DNA of 22,129 nt from a virus (IMGVR_UViG_2526164668_000016:1-22129), one strand, 5' to 3'; numbered from the stretch's first letter, positions 19,863 to 20,227 are shown. The notes: a model not told the origin generated them from the letters alone. Program-made: numbers and translations.

Positions 19863-20029
19863 TTTCTTTGTTTGCTGTTTATTAAAAACACTTCTGCATG
19901 GTGAATCCCCCTGTGCGGAGGGGCGATCAGCAACCAGGTATATGGGATAATCGCGGATTCAGGTGCTGATACTGAATTCACCGGGAGGCACCCGGCACCA
20001 TGCAAGAAAAAGAATGTGCATGCAAACAT

Positions 20030-20054
20030 GCCCCTCTCCGGAGGGGCATTTTTT
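20030..20054 (+). terminator. rho-independent terminator
   Basis: GCCCCTC-tccg-GAGGGGC followed by A and TTTTTT. Confidence 0.65.
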
Positions 20055-20148
20055 ATGGGTAAAAAATAGCCCGAATGGGTTCGGGCAATAGCATGAGATA
20101 CTGATATTGTTGTGTTGTTATCGTGTGGATTTTAACCAGGGTTTATCA

Positions 20149-20174
20149 GGCTGCGCAACTGCGTGGCCTTTTTT
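20149..20174 (+). terminator. rho-independent terminator (stem with two G-U pairs)
   Basis: GGCTGCGC-aact-GCGTGGCC followed by TTTTTT. Confidence 0.5.
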
Positions 20175-20182
20175 CATTTCTT

Positions 20183-20227
20183 GGGCTGTAGTCCCCGTGT
20201 GTCATTCAGGCTTCCGGACTACAGCCC
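20183..20227. repeat. perfect 12-bp inverted repeat with 21-bp spacer, about 45 bp upstream of the NanS-p-like gene
   Basis: GGGCTGTAGTCC (20183-20194) … GGACTACAGCCC (20216-20227). Confidence 0.55.

Follow-up and report, generated by a model that had tools for sequence, protein, structure and literature searches.

In the Q/PR′/tR′ systems of lambda, 933W and H-19B the lysis genes are separated from an upstream Q gene by several intrinsic terminators, and it is established lambdoid biology that Q-modified polymerase ignores terminators. In at least eight Sakai prophages, convergent pairs of Hfq-binding small RNAs (sRNAs) occupy the interval that separates the cargo CDS from a conserved phage ORF further downstream, 3′ of the Q-antiterminated promoter PR′ (Tree et al. 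2014, PMC4104026). One of these sRNAs, AgvB, lifts repression by GcvB and helps the bacteria to grow in bovine rectal mucus; the motif CACAACA is the GcvB R1 target consensus, and the primary 5′ end of AgvB has been mapped in Sakai only (PMC4104026). The partner of AgvB has been named EcOnc06, expression of STnc100 relatives has been reported, and the reason for the dyad arrangement was called unclear (PMC7873438). PasD/STnc100 adjoins a sialic-acid esterase gene and also has TerB as a neighbour, and TerB is listed as a conserved neighbour of the PasA/PasC sRNAs as well (bioRxiv 10.64898/2026.05.13.724894). The function of STnc100 itself is poorly defined in the literature. In lambda, a stem-loop called sdi lies upstream of gene S. 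In phi80 (JX871397), a 'putative rightward transcription terminator' is annotated at 42362-42385, 40 nt before the holin gene.

The window analysed here, a whole stretch of 22,129 nucleotides, comes from an IMG/VR record and covers 22 kb of a lambdoid prophage of E. coli. The genes that frame the region of interest are:

16594-16974, plus strand: Q antiterminator gene (PF06530)
after Q and before the tRNA genes, plus strand: AraC-type regulator gene
18849-18924, plus strand: tRNA-Met(CAU)
19021-19097, plus strand: tRNA-Arg(UCU)
19195-19862, plus strand: TerB-domain gene and overlapping 55-codon DUF3927 membrane-protein gene
20271-22121, plus strand: NanS-p-type sialate O-acetylesterase gene, 616 aa (Pfam DUF1737, SASA (PF03629) and DUF6645), hereafter nanS-p

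The TerB and DUF3927 genes occupy the slot of stx in related phages, and in near-identical records nanS-p is labelled yjhS / NanS or SASA esterase. Between the DUF3927 gene and nanS-p there is a gap of 408 bp (19863-20270), and the same gap, in variant forms, was found downstream of stx1 or stx2 in Stx phages. A strong intrinsic terminator that follows the tRNA pair (19110-19129, plus strand) is one more terminator between Q and the lysis block. Outside the late region, gathering-level Rfam matches to isrK (11085-11161, plus strand, 57.6 bits) and to C4 antisense RNA (11186-11273, plus strand, 85 bits) together place an antisense immunity cassette of the P4/P1 type in the early-right region (11085-11273).

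The terminator scan returned 8 terminator-like sites in 3 kb, compared with 3.3 ± 1.7 in shuffled sequences. A sequence-only reading of the window had remarked on the density of hairpins in the gap, and had proposed that it reflects either controlled, Q-dependent read-through or a protein-binding site governing the esterase. Our analysis indicates that the gap is very probably a lambdoid cargo-site sRNA module followed by the leader of the nanS-p/lysis block. Its features are:

19867-20060, plus strand: STnc100-family sRNA gene (Rfam RF02076)
19907-19923, plus strand: hairpin 1, CCCCCTGTGCGGAGGGG, internal stem-loop of the STnc100-type RNA
20030-20047, plus strand: hairpin 2, GCCCCTC-TCCG-GAGGGGC, STnc100 terminator stem
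20028-20057, plus strand: T1, intrinsic terminator of the STnc100-type RNA (terminator scan)
20123-20062, minus strand: AgvB anti-GcvB sRNA gene (Rfam RF02702)
20086-20069, minus strand: AgvB terminator, GCCCGAACCCATTCGGGC and a T run (terminator scan)
20129-20158, minus strand: putative AgvB promoter, read from the sequence, with -10 TAAAAT (20134-20129), an 18-nt spacer and -35 TTGCGC (20158-20153)
20148-20175, plus strand: T2, second terminator, AGGCTGCGC-AACT-GCGTGGCCT (stem 20148-20169) then TTTTTC (terminator scan)
20182-20194 / 20216-20228, plus strand: HP3, leader hairpin, a perfect 13-bp inverted repeat with a 21-nt loop (inverted repeat I4)
20254-20273, plus strand: small hairpin CCCGGCCGGG overlapping the Shine-Dalgarno sequence GGAGG (minimum-free-energy folds)

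Two known sRNA genes in the gap

Most of the hairpin-rich gap is already known, since it consists of two described sRNA genes. The plus-strand gene matched RF02076 over model positions 1-206 of 206 (142.7 bits, gathering threshold 47, E = 5.7e-32), and is an STnc100-family gene of the EcOnc06 / EcOnc27 / sRNA103 type, related to PasD. The two similar hairpins singled out in the sequence-only reading, at 19907-19923 and 20030-20047, are indeed present and are 85% alike across 20 nt (repeat family D2). Judged from the family alignment, they are parts of one STnc100-family gene, the first an internal stem and the second its own terminator. Hairpin 1 aligns with a conserved paired element of RF02076, and its bases are nearly all invariant across five diverged phage loci. 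Hairpin 2 extends to a 9-bp stem (20028-20049) that is followed by TTTTTTAT, and the stem of T1 is the 3′ stem in the RF02076 alignment.

Compared with known STnc100 RNAs (EHEC EcOnc06/EcOnc27/sRNA103 and EPEC PasD1/PasD2), the gene shows the same full-length model match, the same place 3′ of cargo genes and 5′ of the esterase/lysis block, and likewise a Rho-independent terminator of its own; the difference lies in the upstream cargo, which here is TerB and DUF3927 rather than stx. STnc100 lies between Q and the lysis genes in the window, and likewise in Stx1 and Stx2 phages and, in one further locus (L292), before a holin gene.

The minus-strand gene matched RF02702 at 88.7 bits (gathering threshold 56) over model positions 1-62 of 62 and is nearly identical to the consensus, while the related AsxR model reached only 43 against a gathering threshold of 63. 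The 5′ end of AgvB on the minus strand, CGAUAACAACACAACAAUAUC, contains CACAACA, the GcvB R1 target mimic. This gene and the minus-strand terminator that ends it (20086-20069) had been overlooked in the sequence-only reading. With AgvB (EcOnc01a/b) of the O157:H7 Sakai prophages Sp10 and Sp17 the window copy shares all 62 positions, the mimic, the terminator and the convergent partner, and no notable sequence difference was seen. Between the DUF3927 gene and nanS-p, STnc100 on the plus strand and AgvB on the minus strand converge, 12 nt separating their terminators; for the Q/PR′ cargo site, Tree et al. 2014 (PMC4104026) have described just this dyad of convergent sRNAs.

The -10 element of the putative AgvB promoter ends 5 nt before the AgvB 5′ end, as given by the start of the model. 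The consensus promoter scan did not report this promoter because its -35 matches only 3 of 6 consensus positions. TGCGCAA, the core of the -35, was invariant in all 47 of the 47 leader variants compared, and alleles carrying other anti-sRNAs have TATTAT at the same spacing as the AgvB -10. From these sequences it is plausible that TTGCGC-18 nt-TAAAAT is the AgvB promoter.

Since hairpins 1 and 2 and one terminator belong to STnc100, and AgvB explains a third terminator, the density of hairpins does not point to a dedicated read-through device. What holds of the Q-dependent read-through proposal is its setting, as the terminators fit a Q-antiterminated unit (Q at 16594-16974, PR′ cargo site; PMC4104026). 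The region illustrates, in textbook fashion, the lambdoid packing of host-directed sRNAs (a GcvB sponge and an STnc100-type RNA) behind cargo genes, and recognising the sRNA genes keeps such a hairpin-rich gap from being taken for a new control element.

A terminator and a conserved hairpin ahead of nanS-p

Both of the plus-strand intrinsic terminators that had been noted before were recovered by the terminator scan, at 20028-20049 and 20148-20169, each with a T run. T1 and T2 each consist of a 9-bp stem with 6 G-C pairs, a 4-nt loop and a T run of 5-6, and both have the form of intrinsic terminators in the scan, namely a G+C-rich stem and a short loop with a U tract directly after. T2 overlaps the -35 of the putative AgvB promoter. 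It is nevertheless more than a by-product of that promoter, because its inner six pairs were kept across 47 variants (including an invariant U·G pair), because alleles with differing flanks have the hairpin and T run rebuilt at a shifted register, and because the stem GGCUGCGC-NNNN-GCGUGGCC with its U run recurs before holin genes (L228, L229, L231) where there is no anti-sRNA gene or TTGCGC. In some alleles T2 is reduced to 5-6 bp. In one IMG/VR relative (L106) the right arm of T2 is deleted, with HP3 and nanS-p retained.

Downstream of T2, the inverted repeat that had been described as 12 bp with a 21-bp spacer is present and perfect, and its spacer is 21 nt; the arms proved to be 13 bp long (20182-20194 / 20216-20228). 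HP3 ends 43 nt before the nanS-p ATG. A 61-nt stretch containing it folded at -28 kcal/mol, compared with -12.5 ± 2.5 for shuffled sequences (z = -6.2), and 0 of 200 shuffles were as good. Leaders were collected from IMG/VR using two patterns, one anchored on the nanS-p start and the other on T2 only. A search for the repeat upstream of nanS-p homologues had been suggested, and there it was found, contrary to the absence from homologous loci that had been named as a refutation: T2 and HP3 were followed by a nanS-p start in 48 of 49 distinct variants that had been picked without any nanS-p requirement. In the exception (L147, IMG/VR), HP3 is cut inside the loop by unrelated DNA. Among complete E. 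coli genomes, T2, HP3 and the nanS-p start occurred together in 1207 of 5426 (22%), with a median of 3 copies and a maximum of 10.

Every variant keeps a hairpin at HP3 although the loops vary in sequence and length. In an alignment of 36 variants (A2), 88.9% of cells were paired, compared with 23-46% in slid registers, and 5 of the 13 pairs had changed on both sides. In controls that overstate the significance somewhat because the sequences are related (a reservation that applies equally to the holin leaders below), 0-1 of 500 shuffles reached four of five measures of A2 and 29 of 500 reached the fifth, further pair types; an alignment of 47 variants (A3) gave the same result. Stronger as arguments are the asymmetry between strands and the double changes, which arose independently in different lineages. 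G·U pairs are frequent, the innermost pair being U·G in 25 of the 34 sequences with letters at that place, and for the most diverged variants the fold energy was -19 to -23 kcal/mol with the plus strand but only -2.5 to -12 with the minus strand. Because of this G·U and compensatory pairing, and because the fold is stable only on the plus strand in diverged variants, HP3 is, on comparative sequence evidence, a conserved plus-strand RNA structure of the late transcript and not a DNA palindrome.

The same data bear on the protein-binding site proposed in the sequence-only reading, in which the 13-bp repeat would be a DNA operator through which a dimeric phage or host regulator controls esterase transcription. 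Perfect palindromic arms 43 bp upstream of the start codon, conserved in relatives, are what such an operator would be expected to have. However, U·U mismatches occur in most relatives, as do G·U pairs (which become A·C on the opposite strand), the G·U and compensatory pairs form only in plus-strand RNA, and the most diverged variants make a stable hairpin on that strand only. Moreover, the loop ranges from 21 to 33 nt, the promoter scan gave no convincing promoter nearby, and in the holin leaders described below the arm sequences are wholly different with pairing kept. A search of the region for NanR-type or other operator repeats found nothing repeated beyond chance. We therefore do not favour a protein-binding site and consider an operator extremely unlikely.

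A different role was considered for the HP3 loop, which contains an anti-start motif (UGUCAUU) and an anti-SD motif (CUUCCGG). These could pair with the nanS-p ribosome-binding region, giving a pseudoknot that represses or times translation. Positions 20200-20217 are 72% complementary to 20259-20276 (I6), and UGYCAU in the loop and AUGRCA at the start co-vary in two main haplotypes, with 95 Watson-Crick, 8 wobble and 7 mismatch combinations. This association is mostly linkage, because all four loop/start combinations occur on the VT2-type backbone. In addition, duplex energies were no better than with shuffled loops (p = 0.1-0.6), and the anti-start motif is missing from five other hairpin types. 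The pseudoknot was rejected as not significant relative to shuffled loops and coding-region windows, and we regard it as very unlikely.

An Rfam E-value search with T2/HP3 gave only sub-threshold, terminator-like matches (OmrA-B at 20.9 bits, suhB and Leu leader).

Related leaders before holin genes

A covariance model of T2 and HP3 (R1) was run on 301 Enterobacteriaceae genomes. A strong match came from one Escherichia genome, and weaker ones of 40.5 and 33 bits from two further genomes; in the latter two the element precedes a dual-start holin gene and there is no esterase. In one of these two (L228) the holin gene is succeeded by genes for lysozyme and Rz, and T2 and a hairpin again precede the holin gene in Klebsiella phage ST11-VIM1phi8.3 (L231). 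By sequence comparison, T2 with a hairpin is not specific to nanS-p, and related leaders precede the holin gene in Klebsiella-type and other lambdoid prophages. At 1147-1225 in L231 the minus strand carries, behind the T2-like stem, ATGCGC, 19 nt and TAAAAT, which could be a leftward promoter like that of AgvB; no anti-sRNA gene was recognised there.

From 80 loci fetched around lambda-S-type holins, 54 distinct leaders were obtained. Most of them consist of a variable intrinsic terminator, a U-rich linker, a long-stem hairpin, about 45 nt, an SD hairpin and the start codon, with the linker UUUUUCAUUUC as in the window. The hairpin has the form CAGGNYC.CGGG...CCCG..CCUG with loop motifs GGGAAUCAYC and GUUGNUAAAUC, and it ends 41-58 nt before the ATG, compared with 43 nt in the window. 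Compensatory changes were again present, with 4 of 13 pairs changed on both sides. By eye, the loop CAUUGUCCUGUAACUUCCGG of VT2-type E. coli leaders resembles the holin-leader loops CGUUGUCGUUAAAUCCG. No Rfam family covers the Klebsiella-type leader hairpin.

Partial counterparts occur in phi80 and lambda. In phi80, the annotated terminator has the stem AGGCTGCCG...CGGCGGCCT followed by T6, and resembles T2 both in sequence and in its place before the first gene of the lysis block. Unlike the window, phi80 has no HP3-like hairpin after the terminator and its first gene is the holin rather than nanS-p; the R1 score of the terminator was only 12 bits. Lambda (L233, NC_001416) contains a GC-rich hairpin with a 10-bp stem, GGCAGGAGGT...ACCTCCTGCC followed by GTTTTG, at about 45032-45061 and some 125 nt before S, with only a degenerate T2 remnant, ACGCTGCGGCCTTTTAC, just upstream of it. 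No annotation of this hairpin was found in record NC_001416.

The lambda hairpin is relevant to the idea that HP3 is a transcription pause, a weak terminator or an RNase III site that sets late transcription, or the late message, into nanS-p and the lysis genes. Like the strong HP3 stem directly after T2, the lambda stem with GUUUUG behind it would suit such a role, and in many relatives the stem is followed at 2-4 nt by a short U-rich stretch (e.g. CCUUAUUUUAC or CCUUUUAC). In the window, however, the sequence after HP3, CUCCAUAUCUG, does not amount to a U tract, and intrinsic terminators seldom have loops as long as 21-33 nt. HP3 does not have the form of an intrinsic terminator, given its 21-nt loop and the CTCCATATCTG after its stem, and is absent from the terminator-scan list. 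Typical RNase III substrates are longer than a 13-bp stem, which counts against cleavage by that enzyme. Taken together, we consider a pause, weak terminator or RNase III site rather unlikely.

It was also considered that T2 and HP3 have no function, and are conserved as the edge of a block-recombining module that holds the anti-sRNA promoter and the nanS-p start. A mosaic boundary does lie just upstream, where AgvB and the promoter -10 are swapped between alleles and the T2/HP3/start region stays. Furthermore, a nanS-p homologue of 85% identity on an Escherichia albertii contig (L126) lacks the leader, its upstream DNA being AT-rich and unrelated, with no T2/HP3. Set against this are the maintenance of pairing by compensatory changes, the persistence of the T2 stem where the anti-sRNA promoter is absent, and the recurrence of the same architecture and spacing (41-58 nt to the ATG) before unrelated first genes, and we judge the absence of function to be quite improbable. 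Because the E. albertii nanS-p has a different upstream region, the T2-HP3 leader is common but not obligatory. A genome scan for more distant nanS-p homologues gave only 5 loci, two of which lack the N-terminal domain and have unrelated upstream DNA.

The nanS-p start and late transcription

The nanS-p ATG at 20271 comes after the SD hairpin. Small hairpins that pair a C-run with the Shine-Dalgarno sequence also precede the start in the holin leaders, and analogous ones were found before the holin start in L228, L229, L231 and lambda. In lambda sdi, the Shine-Dalgarno G-run right before the start is paired with a C-run; the likeness (CCCGGCCGGGAGG here and CCCCUUAUUGGGGG in lambda) was judged by eye, and nanS-p differs in having no dual-start motif. 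The scan gave no nanS-p promoter in the stretch from T2 to the start codon, where inspection by eye showed weak candidates only. An open frame of 54 codons with a TTG start (20107-20271, plus strand) runs through T2 and HP3 and ends in TAATG over the nanS-p start. This frame was rejected and is probably not a gene, because the open frames change frame and end points between variants.

T1 and T2 lie within the PR′ late unit, the Q gene (PF06530) being upstream on the same strand, and the organisation matches that of 933W-type phages. As in lambda, 933W and H-19B, several intrinsic terminators thus separate Q from the lysis genes, but T1 and T2 are not tR′, being about 3 kb downstream of Q and behind the cargo. 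In a lysogen, transcripts from cargo or sRNA promoters would stop at T1, and read-through past T1 would be caught at T2. With cargo and sRNA transcription stopped in this way, nanS-p and the lysis genes would therefore remain silent; their leaky expression would be harmful. The T2 DNA would at the same time supply the AgvB promoter with its -35 and upstream A-tract. Upon induction, Q-modified RNA polymerase coming from PR′ would pass T1 and T2 and transcribe HP3, nanS-p and the lysis genes. The late RNA may then be cut in the U-rich linker after T2, so that HP3 becomes a 5′-proximal stem protecting the nanS-p/lysis message, a role that we favour over the others considered, though with considerable doubt.

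More generally, the terminator, HP3 and the SD hairpin could be a member of a so far undescribed cis-acting leader RNA of the lambdoid lysis block, common to E. coli nanS-p leaders and to the holin leaders of Klebsiella-type and other Enterobacteriaceae prophages, that would determine how stable the late message is or how it is processed or translated when Q has allowed polymerase to pass. We offer this as a tentative proposal that falls short of probable. A regular terminator together with a structurally conserved hairpin before the first gene of the lysis block, be it nanS-p or a holin gene, appears to be undescribed in the literature searched, in which no description of a leader hairpin or terminator before lysis genes was found. 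Should the hairpin govern how stable the late message is or how it is translated, this would bear on lysis timing and, in toxin-carrying relatives, also on the amount of cargo product released upon induction; the proposed leader RNA, if real, would influence when lysis occurs and how phage and cargo products are released. This terminator-hairpin leader is a modest question.

Pairing of STnc100 or AgvB with the nanS-p leader was no better than with shuffled leaders. At some holin loci the STnc100 gene ends directly at the leader hairpin. Two Klebsiella-type prophages have an STnc100 gene in the holin leader (L292 at 316-600 and L259 at 89-269, with 63.8 and 84.4 bits, respectively), and in L292 the leader hairpin and a lambda-S-type holin gene come straight after the STnc100 terminator, anti-sRNA and esterase both being absent. 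STnc100 may be a long-standing component of the leader of the lysis block.
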